Source: Escherichia phage phi458. Taken from it: a stretch of DNA of 44,850 nt. The notes below the pieces were generated by a model. It saw nothing but the letters and a program-made list of their open reading frames with translations, ran no database searches and was not told the DNA's origin. Position numbers and translations under genes: made by a program. This document shows, one piece after another, positions 2,282 through 43,889 of the stretch (positions within the stretch are counted from its first letter, which is position 1; the number at the start of each line of letters is the position of its first letter). The stretch lies in the sequence record OP434518; one strand, written 5' to 3'.

Positions 2282-2920
2282 TTGATAAGTTGTGATAGCA
2301 TCATTAAAAGTTTCAGTTCGTTGAGCAGGGATTACATGGTAAATCAGCAACAGCAACAGCAACAGATTAACGAAAATCTAAAAATTGAGGCAATCCGTTG
2401 GTATCAGAAGCTGCAGGAGATTACTTATCTTGAAGCAGGACAACACATGCGGGCTTTAAATCAGCTCATGTGGCAAATCCCTAGTTTCGTAATTGCTGTC
2501 AATGGTGGGTTGTGGTATGCAACAACACTGGCAAATGAAAGTTCCCTATGGATTATCTTTGCAGTGTTAGCATTGTTTGATTTCACAACAATGATTACAC
2601 TTTATCGCTTAAGGTCTTTAATTGGTTCGAAAATAGCACTACAAAAAAACATTGAAGACCCTTCAAAAAACTATATTTTAAATGAAATTACTAGAGACGC
2701 TGGATTTAAATTGCCCTCTAGCTATGATAATAAGGAAACTGGTTACATAGTAGTGTCGTGCTGGGCAATAATGCTTATTGTTTGCTTCTTTGTTAATATT
2801 GCTGGGGTATGTCATCCAAACTTGTTTTCAAAAGACATTTCACATAATACATACAAAGCAACAATTAAAAATATTGAGTCAGGATTATTTATCGAAGCAA
2901 AATCAGGATTATCAAAGTGA
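2282..2920 (+). CDS. Hypothetical integral membrane protein with poly-Gln tract (start may be ATG 2336)
   Basis: Three hydrophobic helices (IPSFVIAVNGGLWYATTL, LWIIFAVLALFDFTTMITL, YIVVSCWAIMLIVCFFVNIAGV); visibly AT-rich; stop overlaps the next gene's start. Confidence 0.6.
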   Translation: MISCDSIIKSFSSLSRDYMVNQQQQQQQINENLKIEAIRWYQKLQEITYLEAGQHMRALNQLMWQIPSFVIAVNGGLWYATTLANESSLWIIFAVLALFDFTTMITLYRLRSLIGSKIALQKNIEDPSKNYILNEITRDAGFKLPSSYDNKETGYIVVSCWAIMLIVCFFVNIAGVCHPNLFSKDISHNTYKATIKNIESGLFIEAKSGLSK

Positions 2921-3519
2921 CTTCGTGGAAGTTTTATGACAATAATGCTGATCGCTTATTTGCCGATTATATATCACTTGATTTTTACTCTATCTTTCAG
3001 GATGTTGAAGAGTTTATTTTACAATCTAAGGGTGTCTCTTTGGATGTCGGTTCAGGTTCCGGCCGTGATGCTGCTGCGTTAGATGAATTAGGTTATAAAG
3101 TAATAGCTGTTGAACCAAGTGAAAAGATGCGAAATTTGGCATCTTCATATTATAAATCTAACCATATTATATGGTTAGATGATTCATTGCCTTTTCTTCA
3201 TAGTGTTAAAGCAATGAATCTAAAGTTCGACCTTATTTTAGTCAGTGCTGTATGGATGCATCTTTCAAAAAAAGAGCAAAAAATCTCACTAGAGACGCTA
3301 ACTGATCTTTTAACATTGAATGGGAGAATGATAATTACATTGCGCTTGGGACCTCCCGAACCAGATAGAAACATTAACGTTGTTAATACTGAGGAACTTC
3401 TTGAGTTAGCGTCTCAGTTAGGTCTGAAAACATTGCGAGTTACGTCAATAAATAAAGATAGTTTTCAACGTAACCAGATAACTTGGCAGAAAGTTGTATT
3501 ATCAAAAAATAATGAGTAA
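2917..3519 (+). CDS. Class I SAM-dependent methyltransferase (GTG start, GTGA overlap with upstream ORF)
   Basis: Motif I LDVGSGSGRDA followed by an acidic residue after a beta-strand (VIAVEPS); 200 aa; AT-rich codon usage like the upstream membrane gene. Confidence 0.65.
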   Translation: MTSWKFYDNNADRLFADYISLDFYSIFQDVEEFILQSKGVSLDVGSGSGRDAAALDELGYKVIAVEPSEKMRNLASSYYKSNHIIWLDDSLPFLHSVKAMNLKFDLILVSAVWMHLSKKEQKISLETLTDLLTLNGRMIITLRLGPPEPDRNINVVNTEELLELASQLGLKTLRVTSINKDSFQRNQITWQKVVLSKNNE

Positions 3520-3530
3520 ATAACTTAGTA

Positions 3531-4775
3531 TTATTCGCACAGACCGTAGCGTGAAGAGCAAACCTCTATATCGAGACTTGCTTTTACAAGATCGTAGACC
3601 TTGCCACCGCGCCCTGTTTTTGCCCACTCTACGACTTCATAAACACCCGGAGAATTAAGATCTCCACGAGGACCATAAAATCCTGACCAGTCGATGTGTT
3701 GCACATCAGGTTTTAGCCCAAAAAGTTGAATATTTCGACCAAGTGGCAGATTGAACTGTTTCATCCAGCGTTGGCTTATCTCTCCTACGCTCATCCAGTG
3801 TACCCATCTACTAGCAAGGCGTACCTTCAACTCCCATTGTTTGTGCTTTTTGATGTGCTCTGGCCAGCGCGCAGCCGTCTCTGCAATTTCCTCTTTGTTG
3901 CATAGCACGCAATTCATGCAGCCAACACGAGACGCACCTTGCATATAAAGTGGATTTGGCTTAATTCCGAAATATTTGTGAACTGCGAATACGTCCTCAG
4001 CCGTCCATTTGTGGAGCGGCAGGAAGTTGTAGAGAAAATCGGCGTCGCGCATATCGCGGGAAAACCTCTCATATCCAGCGCGCTTAGAGGACTCATCCGC
4101 GCGAACACCAGACCATTGTACGATAACATCGCCAGCATCAAGGAGCGGCTTTATGGCTGCGTCGAAAGCTATCTGAATTTTCAGTTCGTCTGTACAGAAT
4201 CGGTCGCGCAGCATAGGGAACTTGCCATGCAGAAGGGAGCAATCCAAAAAGCTATTACCGGATGGGTGCATAACGGAAAGCGCAGCATCAAGAGCAGTTT
4301 CGAACTCAATTCCCCAGCGTTCTGCTGTGCGCTTCCAGGCTTGCCCGAATTTGGTGTCAGAACGTGCGAGGGAAGGCATGACTATGCCACGGTATGCTCC
4401 CATGCGGATCATCTGTCGTTTAGACCAGTTTTTTTGCAGATAAATTCGTCGTTTGGCAAAATCTTCTTCAGTGTAAATCCGCTTCACAACCTGCACAGGG
4501 CTACAACCGATCTGCTCATGAATGCTCCTGGCGAATTCGACAGTTAGATTATGCTCATTATCCGTGTCTGCCATAACAGCATGTACCTGTTTGCCGAATA
4601 ATGTGTGCGCCACTGCGAGTGTGGCAGTGCTGTCTTTTCCTGCTGAATAATTCACGATTATCTTATGATCATTAGGGATGCGAAATTCATTTATATATCT
4701 GTTGTAGGACTCTTCTATTTCGCGAATTTTCTTGCTGATGTCTGTTGGGACAATAATTATTGCTGCCTCGTTCAT
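3531..4775 (-). CDS. PAPS-reductase/DndC-family PP-loop ATP pyrophosphatase-like protein
   Basis: PP-loop-like NYSAGKDST near the N-terminus; Cys cluster CMNCVLC; 414 aa; in the pL operon where lambda carries orf61/ea8.5/ea22. Confidence 0.6.
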   Translation of the reverse strand: MNEAAIIIVPTDISKKIREIEESYNRYINEFRIPNDHKIIVNYSAGKDSTATLAVAHTLFGKQVHAVMADTDNEHNLTVEFARSIHEQIGCSPVQVVKRIYTEEDFAKRRIYLQKNWSKRQMIRMGAYRGIVMPSLARSDTKFGQAWKRTAERWGIEFETALDAALSVMHPSGNSFLDCSLLHGKFPMLRDRFCTDELKIQIAFDAAIKPLLDAGDVIVQWSGVRADESSKRAGYERFSRDMRDADFLYNFLPLHKWTAEDVFAVHKYFGIKPNPLYMQGASRVGCMNCVLCNKEEIAETAARWPEHIKKHKQWELKVRLASRWVHWMSVGEISQRWMKQFNLPLGRNIQLFGLKPDVQHIDWSGFYGPRGDLNSPGVYEVVEWAKTGRGGKVYDLVKASLDIEVCSSRYGLCE

Positions 4776-8136: not shown

Positions 8137-8469
8137 TCAATCGTAATAACCTGGAATTGATTTTCCGCGTTGCTTCTGGCGGCCTGAGCAAGTCACACCC
8201 ATTTCACAGCGTGGCTTGCTGTACCATGTGCGCTGATTCTTGCGCTCAATACGTTGCAGGTTGCTTTCAATCTGTTCGTGGTATTCAGCCAGCACCGTAA
8301 GGTCTATCGGATTCAGTGCGCTTTCTACTCGTGATTTCGGTTTGCGATTCAGCGAGAGAATAGGGCGGTTAACTGGTTTTGCGCTTACCCCAACCAACAG
8401 GGGATTTGCTGCTTTCCATTGAGCCTGTTTCTCTGCGCGACGTTCGCGGCGGCGTGCTTGTGCATCCAT
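8137..8469 (-). CDS. N: N transcription antiterminator
   Basis: Internal start MDAQARRRERRAEKQAQWKAANPLLVGVSAKPVNRPILSL... matches lambda N with its arginine-rich motif; C-terminus diverges. Confidence 0.85.
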   Translation of the reverse strand: MDAQARRRERRAEKQAQWKAANPLLVGVSAKPVNRPILSLNRKPKSRVESALNPIDLTVLAEYHEQIESNLQRIERKNQRTWYSKPRCEMGVTCSGRQKQRGKSIPGYYD

Positions 8470-8642: not shown

Positions 8643-8679
8643 ATGGCTAAATAGTACGATTTGTACTTTATCGAGTCAA
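8643..8679 (-). promoter_or_regulatory. pL-like promoter with overlapping operator palindrome
   Basis: Minus strand TTGACT-N17-TACTAT; palindrome AGTACgatttGTACT (8653-8667) overlaps the -10 and is unlike lambda OL. Confidence 0.6.
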
Positions 8680-8750
8680 TACAAAATGTTCTAAATATAA
8701 TTAGTTTTTTATAACGCTTTGTATTTAATGGGTTTATATTTTGGAAAAAG

Positions 8751-8775
8751 AAAACCCGGCGCTGAGGCCGGGTTT
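8751..8775 (-). terminator. Intrinsic terminator after the 348-aa immunity-region gene
   Basis: Hairpin CCCGGC-gctgag-GCCGGG flanked by an A-run on one side and T-run on the other. Confidence 0.6.
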
Positions 8776-8783
8776 GGAGTGCA

Positions 8784-9830
8784 TCACTCTGGTTCGCTGG
8801 GGAATATATTTATCAATTGCCCTGTTGAAATGTGCCCATTTTCTACAACCTCTAGGTATGAAATTTCAACAGTTGATTCTTTGGCTACAGCATTCAAAAA
8901 CTCAAGAAGCTCATCAGTAGATGTTATGTCGGCTGAGGTTTTTATGGTGAAAGATTCACCATTTGAAACCCTTATGACGTCAATATTTATGTCCTGATTT
9001 GTTTCTCCCGAGCGACGAACGCCCGTGACATAAAAGTTATCTCTTCTAGTTTCCTTTTTTCGATCAATTGATTGTCTTTGGTTTAAGGTATTTAACTGTT
9101 CTCTATTTACCACTCTCTGACCAATTGTTACCCTCTCAACTGACGAGTCTTGAGCAAGCTTTTTAAGCAACTTGCTTTTACCATCCTCGCCGTGAGCCAG
9201 AACCTCTCTGCTAATGTTTGTTTGACCGCTAATCAACAACTTGAGCACATTGTCTTGTGCTTCGTTTACCGCTTTGGTGCTTTTTTCCACCAATTGCACC
9301 TGAGAATCTTGGTCATGTCGCTGTGTTTCGTAGTACTCATTGATCCACTTATAGCCTACCGTGCTGGCAGCTAAGACGATAGCGGCGACGGCGCATAGTG
9401 CTTGCCTTCCTGTCATTTTGCCTATCGCTTGAGTAAACACTGTCACCACTCCGTTTACAATCGGATCTGAGTCACCATCCGCTTGGCTTGAGCCTTCGCT
9501 TATTCGGTAGACAATATCCAGCAAACCTTTCTCTGCATCTTTTAGCTTCTGCCGATTATGAGTGCTGTGACTGACTACCGTAAATGCTTTTTGTATTTCA
9601 TGCGTAAGCTCTGCCATACCAAAAAGCATTGACGCAGTCAATGAAGAATTATATCTATTTGGATCGCCTTTTACATTAATATTGATCTTTGGCCATCCAC
9701 TGAAAACTACGTTAGGGAATGTGAAGTCGCTTGAGTCGATATCCTTCCTTCCGAGCATTTCTGTTACAAAAGATACAAAGTCGTCTTCTGACTTGATAAC
9801 ATATTGCGCAGGTTGATCAATCGCTGACAT
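8784..9830 (-). CDS. Unrecognised 348-aa protein with central transmembrane segment, in the rexAB position
   Basis: Starts 25 bp after the cI stop on the same strand with an AAGGA RBS; hydrophobic segment ALCAVAAIVLAASTVGYKWI mid-protein; charged, coiled-coil-like C-terminal half; no family recognised. Confidence 0.75.
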   Translation of the reverse strand: MSAIDQPAQYVIKSEDDFVSFVTEMLGRKDIDSSDFTFPNVVFSGWPKININVKGDPNRYNSSLTASMLFGMAELTHEIQKAFTVVSHSTHNRQKLKDAEKGLLDIVYRISEGSSQADGDSDPIVNGVVTVFTQAIGKMTGRQALCAVAAIVLAASTVGYKWINEYYETQRHDQDSQVQLVEKSTKAVNEAQDNVLKLLISGQTNISREVLAHGEDGKSKLLKKLAQDSSVERVTIGQRVVNREQLNTLNQRQSIDRKKETRRDNFYVTGVRRSGETNQDINIDVIRVSNGESFTIKTSADITSTDELLEFLNAVAKESTVEISYLEVVENGHISTGQLINIFPSEPE

Positions 9831-9855
9831 TCTTAATCCTTAACATCCATTCCTA

Positions 9856-10515
9856 TCACCCAAACGTCTCTTCTGGCCACTGGCTGGCGATAACTTTCCC
9901 TACAACGGAACAGCTATCATTGCATGGGATCATTGGATATTGCGGGTTTAGTGGTTGTAGGAACACCTGACCGCTATCCCTGATCAGTTTCTTGAAGGTA
10001 AACTCGTCACCACCAAGTCTGGCTATGCAGAAATCACCTGGCTCAACAGCCTGCTCAGGGTCAACGAGAATTAACATCCCGTCAGGAAAGCTTGGCTTGG
10101 ATCCTGTTGGTGCGGTCATGGAATTACCTTCAACTTCAAGCCAAAACGCACAATCACTGGCTTTTTTGGTTGTGCTGACCCATCTCTCCGCATCACCTTT
10201 GGTAAAGGTTCTAAGCTCAGGCGAGAACATCCCGGCCTGAACATGAGAAAAAACAGGGTACTCATATTGTTTTTTAACGGGGGCAGATGAGTATTCGCCA
10301 ACAGGTGAAAATGTACCGTCGTGGTTGAATGAGACGTTATCAATACCAAGGTATTTAAACACCACACCAATCTCGTCAAGAGATGGATGACGAGATCCGC
10401 GCAACCAGTGACCAATTCCACCCTGCGTCATACCAAGCTCTTCAGCCAACTTCTCTTGAGTTATGCCGAGCTCTTTCATTCTGGATCTAGCCAGTTCATA
10501 CCATTTCATTTTCAT
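9856..10515 (-). CDS. cI: CI-type repressor (novel HTH N-domain, lambda-type LexA-like C-domain)
   Basis: C-terminal ~130 aa from [15 protein letters not shown] to the end match lambda CI as recalled; N-terminal [25 protein letters not shown] is different. Start chosen at MKMKWYEL; the ORF extends to 10590. Confidence 0.85.
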
Positions 10516-10626
10516 ATCCTTATTATTACGCTCTGTACTAAAACCATCCATGCACAAGATGTATTTTTTGTTTGCATTCCAAAAGTACATATCGTATTAT
10601 TGTCTCATGGTTACTATGGAGGGCAT
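10516..10626. promoter_or_regulatory. OR/pR/pRM divergent control region
   Basis: Between divergent cI and cro; candidate pR TTGCAT-N17-TATTAT; repeated AGTAC..GTA half-sites resemble the pL palindrome. Confidence 0.55.
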
Positions 10627-10842
10627 ATGAGCAACCTACGAAAATATCGAGAGTCACTGAATATCTCTCAAACAACACTTGCTAAGGCGGTTGGATGCAC
10701 ACAGGGAGCTATTGGGCATTGGGAATCTGGTCGTCGCTTCCCAGACCTTAAAACATGCCGCGCTCTTGTTGCATGCCTAAACAAGTTAGGCGCAAAAGTC
10801 AGTCTTGATGACGTGTTCCCTCCGGAACACAAAGCCGCTTAA
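10627..10842 (+). CDS. cro: Cro-like HTH repressor (non-lambda)
   Basis: 71 aa, MSNLRKYRESLNISQTTLAKAVGCTQGAIGHWESG; GGAGGG RBS; divergent from cI. Confidence 0.8.
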   Translation: MSNLRKYRESLNISQTTLAKAVGCTQGAIGHWESGRRFPDLKTCRALVACLNKLGAKVSLDDVFPPEHKAA

Positions 10843-40196: not shown

Positions 40197-40430
40197 ATGG
40201 AGAATATGTATTTCAGCCCAACGACCGTTGGTTTTTATGTTTCTGAACAAGAGCGACCTGATGATGCGGTTGAAGTCTCGCCAGAGGTGGAGGCATTTTT
40301 GAGGGAGTGTGTTATCTGGGGAGCGGATACATTTAACGTAGAGCGAGATGCAGCAACGGTGACATATCCAACAGAACTGCTTGAATATGTCACCACCTAC
40401 AACGCCCCCGTTAAATATCCTGCGGATTGA
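40197..40430 (+). CDS. Hypothetical 77-aa protein after stf (possible remnant of a tail-fibre chaperone)
   Basis: ORF starts 3 nt after the stf stop; its 3' end overlaps the convergent tfa. Confidence 0.35.
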   Translation: MENMYFSPTTVGFYVSEQERPDDAVEVSPEVEAFLRECVIWGADTFNVERDAATVTYPTELLEYVTTYNAPVKYPAD

Positions 40431-40821
40431 CAGGCCATACGGGTTTTGCTGTATCAACGCGCATCAGCAAGACCCGGTATTTTTTCCATTCAGATAACGC
40501 GGCGGTTTCTTCTGCCGTCGCGATTTCCGCATCAAAAGCATCCTGTCTCCAGGCTATTTCCTTATCAGCCATAGAACGCAATACCGTTCTTTTCTGTTCA
40601 GCCTGAATAATCTGTTGTTCAGCGGAGAGTGGCGGGATATCAATCCACGCAGGATTACCATTTTTATCAGCCCCCAGCGTTTTGCCTTGTGGCGCTACGC
40701 CTGTGTAAATTGCCATTGTTTCATCATCAACATCAACGCCATTTTCAGGCCATGAACCGGCGCTGATATATACCTCTTTTAGTGCTTTCGGATAGAAAGA
40801 GCCTTTATAAAATTTATTCAT
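40411..40821 (-). CDS. tfa: Tail fibre assembly protein, opposite orientation to stf
   Basis: C-terminal motif EIATAEETAALSEWKKYRVLLMRVDT matches the conserved Tfa C-terminus (lambda Tfa ...EAWKKYRVLLNRVDT); start at MNKFYKGSFYP. Confidence 0.8.
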   Translation of the reverse strand: MNKFYKGSFYPKALKEVYISAGSWPENGVDVDDETMAIYTGVAPQGKTLGADKNGNPAWIDIPPLSAEQQIIQAEQKRTVLRSMADKEIAWRQDAFDAEIATAEETAALSEWKKYRVLLMRVDTAKPVWPVNPQDI

Positions 40822-40872
40822 TCTTAATACCCCAGCGCGATAAAACAACAATCTTCGGTGCCCTCTCCGGAT

Positions 40873-41017: not shown

Positions 41018-41293
41018 GTGGCTTCCATTTCCATCAGATGTCCTTCCTGCTCCGCTACTGAAGGCGTGGTGCGTAACGGCAAAAGCACTGCCGGACATCA
41101 GCGCTATCTCTGCTCTCATTGCCGTAAAACATGGCAACTACAGTTCACTTACACCGCCTCTCAACCCGGTACGCACCAGAAAATCATTGATATGGCCATG
41201 AATGGCGTTGGATGTCGCGCCAGTGCACGCATTATGGGCGTTGGCCTCAACACGGTTTTACGTCACTTAAAAAACTCAGGCCGCAGTCGGTAA
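41018..41293 (+). CDS. insA: IS1 InsA
   Basis: 91 aa [43 protein letters not shown]... zinc-finger/HTH. Confidence 0.9.
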
Positions 41294-41715
41294 CCTCGCG
41301 CATACAACCGGGCAGTGATGTGATTGTCTGCGCGGAAATGGACGAACAGTGGGGCTACGTCGGTGCTAAATCACGTCAGCGCTGGCTGTTTTACGCGTAT
41401 GACAGGATACGGAGGACAGTTGTGGCGCACGTTTTCGGTGAACGCACTCTGGCCACACTGGCGCGTCTTCTGAGCCTGCTGTCGGCCTTTGAGGTCGTGG
41501 TATGGATGACGGATGGCTGGCCGCTGTATGAATCCCGCCTGAAGGGAAAGCTGCACGTTATCAGCAAGCGTTACACTCAGCGCATTGAGCGACATAATCT
41601 GAATCTGAGACAACATCTGGCAAGGCTGGGACGGAAGTTACTGTCGTTCTCAAAATCGGTGGAGCTGCATGACAAAGTCATCGGGCATTATCTGAACATA
41701 AAACACTATCAGTAA
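41212..41715 (+). CDS. insB: IS1 InsB frame (transposase made as InsAB' by -1 frameshift)
   Basis: 167-aa frame overlapping the insA 3' end; TTAAAAAAC slippery motif present. Confidence 0.85.
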
Positions 41716-42734: not shown

Positions 42735-43889
42735 CTATTTTTGTTGATGATACCAATGCAACATCATCCGGAGCTTCAATAGAGTTGTACTGTCATCATC
42801 CTCAGAACAAAAATTGTATCGCCCGCCTGAATATTCATTTAACTTGTCCAAGTAAAAGCCACCCATTGGGTCATATCTATCAGAGTGGAGCCAAGTAAAC
42901 ATTTTCTGAAGAACGTAATGCAGGGCATTTTTCGGAAGTGTTGAAATCAACACGCCATGCTTAGTTGCTAAATCCTCAATATTCATTTCCTGAAGATTAT
43001 ATCTAATCTCTACTGCAATTGGATGTAGTTTACTTAAAAATACGTCAGCTTCATCCTTGAGATGTGCCTCTTTAACATTCCCCTCGAACAACTTTATTAA
43101 CTCTTCCACTTCCATTCGGTAATAATCGTTATCACCTCGCACCGCAACTTCTGAAAGAAGCAACTTTAACTCAGCATGAATGTTATCAGTAGACGGTATA
43201 ATCTGTTTGGATAGGGTGCTGTAATGTTTTATACGGATTGCTATTACGGAACCCTTTAGGCTTGTTAGATATTTATACCTATCTTCAATATATGTAATTA
43301 GCTCATCGAATTTAATGCCGAAAATAACATCATCTTTCCCTGGCGTGTTGTTGTAAAGGCTTATAGTGAAATCATTTTCATTGAAAGCATGAAAATGAGG
43401 CCAGCTTGCAAACAGTCGCTCACCATCACTATTTTTAAGATTTGTAGGGTGAGCACCAAAGATAGCTCGAATACTCTTAAAGTATGCGTCATCATCCTCA
43501 TGTGAAAGATAGGGCGTTTTATTCTTAAAGACATTCGTTGATTTCTTGAAAGGCCACCTCGCTAACTTATCATCACTCTCAATGATGCGGTGAAGCTGCT
43601 GCAACGCCTCCACAGCAATATCAATAGATGATATAAGGGAGTAAACCTGCATGGCCTTGACATCAATATCTTCCGACAGCTCAGGGAAGTTCATCAGATT
43701 GCGAACAGAAACGCTTATCCAATCCATGCACGAACAGATAGGGCTGAACTGGTTTTTACCATTTCTGTTTATGAAGTAGCTGTAAGCAAACTCCCCTTCA
43801 TTAACCACATCTCGAAAATCAGTTATTAAAGTATCATCAATAGTTACACCAAAATCTGCCTTGGTCATCTTCATGGAAATCACTTTCAA
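42735..43889 (-). CDS. Unrecognised 384-aa cargo protein near attR
   Basis: Long clean ORF in a visibly AT-rich block between the invertase remnant and attR; no motif recognised. Confidence 0.7.
   Translation of the reverse strand: MKVISMKMTKADFGVTIDDTLITDFRDVVNEGEFAYSYFINRNGKNQFSPICSCMDWISVSVRNLMNFPELSEDIDVKAMQVYSLISSIDIAVEALQQLHRIIESDDKLARWPFKKSTNVFKNKTPYLSHEDDDAYFKSIRAIFGAHPTNLKNSDGERLFASWPHFHAFNENDFTISLYNNTPGKDDVIFGIKFDELITYIEDRYKYLTSLKGSVIAIRIKHYSTLSKQIIPSTDNIHAELKLLLSEVAVRGDNDYYRMEVEELIKLFEGNVKEAHLKDEADVFLSKLHPIAVEIRYNLQEMNIEDLATKHGVLISTLPKNALHYVLQKMFTWLHSDRYDPMGGFYLDKLNEYSGGRYNFCSEDDDSTTLLKLRMMLHWYHQQK

Follow-up and report, generated by a model that had tools for sequence, protein, structure and literature searches.

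What does a lambda-like prophage carry between its repressor gene and the terminator of the repressor operon, and what would such a gene do for the lysogen? This question is raised by Escherichia phage phi458 (sequence record OP434518), whose whole stretch of 44,850 nucleotides is called the window hereafter. The window is a lambda-like prophage, with int, the Red genes, kil/cIII, N, an immunity region, lambda-type cII-O-P-ren and genes for lysis, head and tail. Directly downstream of its cI repressor gene, where lambda has rexA and rexB, lies an open reading frame (ORF) of 348 amino acids (aa). The interval between cI and N is a classic home of phage exclusion genes, although most of its cargo is of unknown function. 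One study (PMC8585504, citing Degnan 2007) describes the interval as a mosaic hotspot, with rexAB and bstA as abortive infection (Abi) systems located there. Cargo genes of this hotspot that are expressed in the lysogen are already known as a kind. Our results show that the 348-aa gene is a mobile cargo gene (a 'moron') that lies, as an insertion, between the repressor gene of the prophage and the operon terminator, and its genomic context makes an anti-phage function a reasonable inference.

The insertion is delimited by comparison of the window with 50,697 phage records by megablast. Four records (Dewey, vB_EcoP-720R6, vB_EcoP-683R2 and Louie) matched both flanks in two pieces at 97-98% identity and left the ORF unmatched. 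In Dewey, the one record of the four that was inspected, the slot is empty: 36 bp separate its cI stop codon from the terminator shared with the window, the homology is interrupted at window positions 8774 and 9862, and the insertion amounts to 1.09 kb. Since the terminator is also present in the empty slot of Dewey, it is the repressor operon's own. The 348-aa gene is hence present in the window and absent from close relatives between genes that are adjacent in them, which is one mark of a moron, a promoter and terminator of its own being another. Escherichia coli CFS3246 showed a further arrangement. Its flanks are 98-99% identical to the window and its slot, of nearly equal length, is filled by a different gene of 345 aa. 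The product of that gene shares ~20% identity with the window protein and the same three-part layout. The slot behind one repressor type therefore occurs in at least three states: empty, filled with allele A (that of the window) and filled with allele B (that of CFS3246).

The elements of the locus in the window are the following.

8137 to 8469, minus strand: gene for the lambda-type antiterminator N, left edge of the cI-N cargo slot
8651 to 8679, minus strand: pL-like promoter (TTGACT-17-TACTAT), upstream of N
8743 to 8775, minus strand: intrinsic terminator, with a hairpin at 8775 to 8752 (9-bp stem, 6 G-C pairs) followed by a T-run
8784 to 9830, minus strand: cargo ORF of 348 aa, a member of PHROG 6191, with its ATG at 9830 and its stop at 8784
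9837 to 9841, minus strand: Shine-Dalgarno-like AAGGA, 6 nt from the ATG of the 348-aa ORF
9856 to 10551, minus strand: cI-type repressor gene (LexA/S24 family), upstream gene of the presumed operon
10627 to 10842, plus strand: cro, divergent from cI

The ORF cannot be extended upstream, because 9830 is the first start codon past the preceding stop. It is separated by 25 nt (9831-9855) from the end of the cI ORF at 9856, and the sequence leading to its start reads TGATAGGAATGGATGTTAAGGATTAAGA-ATG, with the AAGGA at -11 to -7. On the other side, a terminator-like hairpin begins 9 nt past the stop codon and its stem is followed by TCTTTTTCC. These coordinates and this geometry uphold the earlier note on this DNA, made from the letters alone, which had described an ORF 25 bp past the cI stop with its own ribosome-binding site and a terminator before pL. 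No promoter-like site was reported within the 25-nt gap, and the gene appears to borrow the promoters of cI. Because it lies between the repressor gene and the operon terminator, a joint transcript with cI is expected in the lysogen; judging from this operon geometry, it would be expressed there from the repressor promoter.

The repressor of the window is itself a chimera, in which a DNA-binding domain of its own at the N terminus is joined to a C-terminal domain (for cleavage and dimerisation) nearly identical to that of lambda cI. Overall identity to lambda cI is 71% across 212 aa; the lambda cI sequence used here aligned along all of its 237 aa to a database protein, which supports it. By eye, cII, O, P and ren of the window are lambda-like as well. 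From these and from the C-terminal domain of cI, it appears that exchange within the immunity region was confined to its specificity part. The allele B protein of CFS3246 is identical to the product of a gene that lies 25 nt past cI in phage mEp332. Since the mEp332 repressor, ~97% identical to lambda cI, is followed by a member of this family, rexAB has been replaced in a phage with lambda immunity. The earlier note had assigned the ORF to the rexAB slot, and both the Dewey junctions, which place it between cI and the terminator, and the mEp332 arrangement bear this out.

The same note had proposed to check whether homologues recur next to unrelated repressors, and they do. Among IMG/VR sequences, proteins 100% identical to that of the window lie behind the window cI (loci L011, L012, L014-16 and L031) and also behind a cI that is 48% identical (L013), and a 99% identical copy lies behind a PhiR12_2-type cI (L019, L020). 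In L017 and L018 the preceding cI shows a 95% match, over 154 aa, to the PhiR12_2 type. The window protein is thereby seen behind at least three different repressors. The PhiR12_2-type cI also occurs with a third allele, whose 341-aa product has ~21-25% identity to that of the window, and distant relatives stand behind still other repressors (L021, L030, L037, L046, L058). In total, a same-strand cI-like gene lies directly upstream of the family member in 18 of the 40 loci examined. As far as these sequences tell, the 348-aa gene moves independently of the immunity type.

Other contents of the slot were seen in two phages whose cI is ~92% identical to that of the window. PhiR11_1 (L061, 1534-2914) holds an unknown pair of 283 and 163 aa, RexA/RexB-like in size and matched by no RexA/RexB, Pfam or PADLOC model, and phage 2851 (L062, 1976-2497) holds a 173-aa ORF with no Pfam or PADLOC match. 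They are candidates for further uncharacterised cargo of this hotspot. In locus L028 (3060-4108; IMGVR_UViG_2713897197_000016), an 88% identical relative of the window gene is split into ORFs of 246 and 78 aa, apparently by a frameshift, and is separated from its cI by an extra ORF of 113 aa. Decay of the gene is therefore possible, as is more than one cargo gene in a single slot.

Placement is not limited to the repressor. Some copies sit at the ends of prophages, adjacent to int or icd (L009, L038-41), others just past smpB-ssrA (L032-35, L042, L043) or beside tail-fibre genes (L005-8, L010, L023, L025-26, L029). Recurrent placement in cargo hotspots is thereby confirmed for the cI-N slot behind several repressor types and for the int, ssrA and tail-fibre sites. 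One member (L052, 5001-6044) lies inside a Mu-like baseplate operon, between homologues of gp45 and gp46 and in the orientation of the late genes; a similar-looking placement among tail genes (L045, 4001-4984) comes from crude ORF calls only. The gene is also found as a chromosomal singleton in Enterobacter and in Aeromonas. In Aeromonas sp. GCA_026399235.1 (L056, 6001-7056) the copy lies between an RDD-family gene and genes for degS/degQ-like proteases. DegS-type proteases cleave single-pass anti-sigma factors, and the closeness of the Aeromonas copies to them may be a coincidence. Several Aeromonas strains carry only fragments of the gene, of 114-220 aa, which suggests gene decay.

No partner gene was consistently adjacent across the loci examined. 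Small acidic ORFs of 68-96 aa lie convergent just downstream in five of them (L023, 1807-2013; L030, 5166-5372; L046, 5082-5288; L028, 4064-4354; L058, 7055-7270). By BLAST, four of the five form two families; the L058 ORF, which stood outside that comparison, carries a precomputed Pfam match to DUF2767. A tblastn search of the window found no homologue of them. A two-gene system was rejected on these grounds, and since the small ORFs fall into two families, are absent from the window by tblastn and include one DUF2767 match, they are probably neighbouring cargo.

To what family does the protein belong? The earlier note had recognised none. This holds for characterised families; on the other hand, the window protein gave a full-length match to PHROG 6191, a family of unknown function (E = 5.8e-36, residues 7-342 on profile positions 5-331 of 338). 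A profile search over 1.84 billion cluster representatives (50% identity clusters) yielded at least 940 clusters at E <= 1e-3, with 579 at E <= 1e-10, almost all of 315-360 aa. A second, word-indexed profile search contributed almost no further members. Named members come from Enterobacterales, Aeromonas, Vibrio/Photobacterium (Vibrionaceae), Marinobacter and a Pasteurella phage, a spread across Gammaproteobacteria, and those found in the searches are all labelled 'hypothetical'. With tblastn, the window protein matched 8 of the 50,697 phage records, all of them family members.

The window protein has no usable match in Pfam, NCBIfam or PADLOC, and no consistent Pfam, PADLOC or PDB-sequence match was found among 59 diverse relatives. 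A match to a structural or housekeeping protein, which would have spoken against the earlier note, did not appear in hidden Markov model (HMM), PDB-sequence or Foldseek searches. The best Pfam scores of the window protein, not significant, are to the FtsH ternary system domain X3-analog (E 0.16) and to FtsH_ext (E 0.93), at aa 215-325; these sub-threshold matches, over the stalk and OB region described below, stem from membrane-associated conflict or periplasmic contexts. Literature searches turned up no characterised family member. Seven homologue records (PV340541, PV340549-54) list MG1655, ECOR13 and E. coli C as hosts. A panel of lambda-related temperate phages with the same three hosts is credited to Brenes & Laub 2025 in PMC13190303. 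Judging from the shared hosts, the PV3405xx records presumably originate from that panel, and the homologues may already have been covered in that work. The protein family, the fold of its N-terminal domain and its architecture are described in no library or paper that could be searched.

The predicted architecture was obtained with AlphaFold2 from an alignment of 24 sequences. The model has a mean predicted local distance difference test (pLDDT) of 65, with low confidence around aa 157-209, and divides the protein as follows.

9423 to 9830, minus strand: N-terminal domain, aa 1-136, acidic (net charge -6), presumed cytoplasmic
9330 to 9413, minus strand: one predicted transmembrane helix, aa ~140-167, with many small residues
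9069 to 9323, minus strand: helical 'stalk', aa ~170-254, variable, of low model confidence
8796 to 9068, minus strand: C-terminal OB-fold beta-barrel, aa ~255-345, pLDDT 84-90, acidic (net charge -7)

The N-terminal domain is the best-conserved part of the family, with the motifs F-x-GWP, VKGxRYxSSLT and EGSS, and the C-terminal half is variable; when identity was compared domain by domain among close relatives, no localised hypervariable patch emerged. The N-domain profile matched nothing among PDB sequences, and its fold has no known structural relative. A conserved M-x-G-x-Q stands ahead of the helix. The hydrophobic segment itself, ALCAVAAIVLAASTVGY (aa 144-160), has a Kyte-Doolittle value of 1.72 and a summed Hessa-scale free energy (dG) of about +0.7 kcal/mol, whereas the best window of lambda cI, our soluble control, gives +7.5 kcal/mol. 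Its position is conserved across the 59 diverse relatives, in which the median dG is 0.45 and 73% fall below 1.5. The single central hydrophobic helix of the earlier note is thus borne out. The C-terminal half, charged and coiled-coil-like in that note, is predicted to be more than this, a helical stretch (aa ~170-250) with the barrel behind it.

Compared with PDB sequences, the full-length profile found only weak matches, to membrane anchors (PBP5, MotB) aligned on the hydrophobic segment. Foldseek against BFVD gave generic OB-fold matches only (E >= 2e-3), and among the structures nearest to the C-terminal domain are SilF/CusF periplasmic metal chaperones, B subunits of AB5 toxins and YgiW-type stress proteins. 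The net charge of the OB domain, -7 in the window protein, averages -2.9 in the family. As the domain is acidic, binding of protein or another ligand is favoured over binding of nucleic acid. Since the protein has no signal peptide and carries a folded N-domain of 135 aa, we infer an N-in, C-out topology, that is, a single-pass inner-membrane protein with its stalk and barrel in the periplasm.

With this build in hand, known exclusion and defence systems can be compared. RexA/RexB of lambda share the position directly downstream of cI and upstream of the operon terminator and pL/N, with presumably similar transcription, and include a membrane component too; they are two genes, in contrast to one here. 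RexB has four transmembrane helices. Identity with RexA was rejected, as neither Pfam PF15969 nor PADLOC matched and hhalign with the 59-sequence profile gave a probability of 0.2%. RexB was likewise rejected: no match to Pfam PF15968 or PADLOC, an hhalign probability of 0.2% and one hydrophobic segment only. As positive controls, the Pfam and PADLOC Rex models score lambda's own proteins at E 1e-61 to 1e-110 (RexA 1e-97 and 9e-110).

SieA/SieB, gp15 of HK97 and Imm/Sp of T4 are phage or prophage inner-membrane proteins that act on a superinfecting phage at or just after DNA entry. P22 SieA (164 aa) and SieB (192 aa) were rejected at hhalign probabilities of 0.5% and 1.4%, respectively, both aligned over the hydrophobic helix only. 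HK97 gp15 and T4 Imm/Sp were set apart by description rather than by direct comparison. All these small exclusion proteins differ from the window protein in being much smaller and in having neither an OB-fold nor the conserved 135-aa cytoplasmic domain.

BstA of the Salmonella prophage BTP1 is a single gene directly 3' of the repressor, with its own terminator, high expression in the lysogen and an association with diverse repressors (PMC8585504). The 348-aa gene shares with it the single-gene layout immediately downstream of a prophage repressor and the occurrence behind diverse repressors. According to the same source, BstA is located where phage DNA is replicated (PMC8585504); the 348-aa protein differs in its predicted membrane helix. 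Identity with BstA was rejected because no BstA or KilA-N model of PADLOC or Pfam matched, a judgement made from HMM matches and not from direct comparison with BstA.

SNIPE (PD-lambda-1), a nuclease bound to the membrane, acts at genome injection, is defined by DUF4041 plus a C-terminal GIY-YIG domain, and combines a conserved effector with a variable adaptor module thought to set phage specificity (PMC13190303). It provides a model of a membrane tether that acts at the site of DNA entry, and the single-protein, single-pass inner-membrane design with one conserved and one fast-evolving module is common to both; the helix is N-terminal in SNIPE and central here. SNIPE was rejected as an identity by absent HMM matches (no DUF4041, GIY-YIG or other Pfam domain and no PADLOC match). 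A nucleic-acid-binding OB-fold with a SNIPE-like, DNA-directed mechanism was also set aside on the acidity of the OB domain and the N-domain, and because both soluble domains are acidic, binding or cleavage of DNA by the protein is unlikely. Finally, the homologues in PV340541 and PV340549-54 are labelled 'T2SS GspM containing protein'. GspM of the type II secretion system (T2SS) has a comparable layout, single-pass in the inner membrane with a helical segment past the helix. The fold, in which the ferredoxin-like periplasmic domain of GspM/PilO-like proteins is not seen, does not support the label, nor does Pfam, in which T2SS-M is unmatched, and a GspM/PilO-like identity was rejected by absent HMM matches.

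What, then, could the protein do? A role in phage conflict is favoured because the gene sits in the most highly transcribed lysogenic operon, recurs in other cargo slots and diverges fast, with allele replacement at constant architecture. The balance tips, if narrowly, towards an anti-phage role of some kind. One form of it, protection of the lysogen at the cell envelope, at the level of entry and without suicide, is put forward tentatively. Here the conserved acidic N-domain would face the cytoplasm, one helix would cross the membrane, and the helical stalk with the acidic OB-fold barrel would project into the periplasm. Stalk and barrel would recognise or obstruct the tail tip, tape-measure or ejection proteins of an incoming phage, or alternatively the inner-membrane entry machinery of the host, and the conserved cytoplasmic domain would supply a common effector, anchoring or oligomerising function. 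The two-sided build, with a conserved cytoplasmic and a variable periplasmic module, suggests coupling between periplasm and cytoplasm. The protein could hence represent a single-polypeptide, trans-envelope class in which phage detected in the periplasm is signalled through one helix to a conserved cytoplasmic effector of unseen fold, acting for instance after oligomerisation or release, a proposal that we regard as doubtful. If the role is anti-phage, the family would be a widespread single-gene, envelope-level system and would bring a new effector or sensor fold.

Several observations weigh against an anti-phage protein at the envelope. Expression of the Mu-like baseplate copies would come late in lytic growth, in contrast to that of the repressor-linked copies, and the Aeromonas singletons have no phage neighbours. 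Using PADLOC, no clear defence-island signal was seen among the neighbours of two non-phage copies; its defence families are unmatched by the window protein and gave scattered single-member matches among the 59 relatives. Known entry-blocking proteins (SieA, Imm and HK97 gp15) are small and have no conserved 135-aa cytoplasmic domain. The three E. coli alleles are rare, occurring in 18, 18 and 5 of 5,426 complete genomes and nearly all at >= 99% identity; this sporadic, clonal distribution fits what is expected of mobile cargo. As to topology, the window protein's helix has borderline values, in some relatives it is weak, and the positive-inside rule is indecisive, with lysine plus arginine counts of 2.27 and 2.24 in the two flanks; only net charge leans towards N-in.

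Lysogenic conversion without defence is the alternative that survives best, although it is still unlikely. The product would be an envelope protein that alters host physiology, for instance stress tolerance, colonisation, or an interaction with a partner in the periplasm or outer membrane or with a ligand of the OB-fold. The SilF/CusF, AB5-toxin and YgiW-type neighbours of the C-terminal domain agree with this, as do the persistence of the gene at prophage ends and as Aeromonas and Enterobacter singletons and the lack of any defence HMM match; bor and lom are conversion genes that ride in highly transcribed cargo slots. What speaks for phage conflict instead is the pace of divergence, with replacement of whole alleles in the repressor operon. 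Were the role not anti-phage, the family would be a widespread lysogenic-conversion envelope protein.

Abortive infection is unlikely. In this reading the protein would detect infection in the periplasm or through its cytoplasmic domain, the helices would oligomerise into a lesion and the membrane potential would collapse, so that one polypeptide would do the job of RexB or of a single-pass holin such as T of T4. The latter, single-pass with a large periplasmic domain, resembles the present build. The slot does hold the Abi systems rexAB and bstA in other phages, the conserved cytoplasmic domain could serve as a sensor, and a helix rich in Gly, Ala and Ser (a fraction of 0.47 in the window protein; family mean 0.32) favours helix-helix packing. 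One moderately hydrophobic helix, however, does little to suggest a pore, the protein showed no resemblance to RexB, to SieB or to a PADLOC membrane effector, and no partner or antitoxin gene is consistently adjacent.

All reasoning from topology, including that for an envelope-level anti-phage protein, would fail if the helix did not span the membrane and were instead buried or oligomerising in a soluble protein. This we consider very unlikely. The borderline values of the helix, weaker still in several relatives (Kyte-Doolittle 0.9-1.4), and the low model confidence around it are what one would expect of such a protein; on the other hand, position and length of the segment are conserved in nearly all of the 59 relatives, the family dG lies far from the soluble control, and the weak PDB-sequence matches are to membrane anchors only. 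Least probable of all is that the protein serves the prophage itself, as reported for RexA/RexB, by modulating its lysis-lysogeny switch, its induction or the timing of lysis: presumed co-transcription with cI, the presence of some copies within late structural operons of Mu-like prophages and the report, as cited in PMC12894663, that RexA modulates the bistable switch of lambda all point that way, but near-identical phages do without the gene, as the empty slot of Dewey shows, and a role tied to one regulatory circuit is disfavoured because the same protein occurs behind unrelated repressors, far from any repressor and at non-phage chromosomal sites.

Beyond the cI-N slot, the window contains other genes of potential interest. 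Near the int end, a 414-aa protein with a PAPS-reductase domain is encoded at 3531-4775 (minus strand; PADLOC SspD 6e-19, BrxP 4e-16, DndC 6e-9). Adjoining it at 2917-3519 (plus strand) is the gene of a 200-aa S-adenosylmethionine (SAM) methyltransferase (PADLOC 'mad2' 7e-15), beside which lies an unknown ORF of 212 aa (2282-2920, plus strand). Together, the genes at 2282-4775 may form a DNA-modification or defence module. At the other end, an IS1 transposase gene (41212-41715, plus strand; Pfam E 1e-73) lies just past the tail-fibre assembly gene (40411-40851), and insertion of this element at the prophage's right end may have interrupted genes for side-tail fibres or cargo. An ORF of 384 aa with no Pfam or PADLOC match (42735-43889, minus strand), likewise close to the right end of the window, occupies a typical cargo position.

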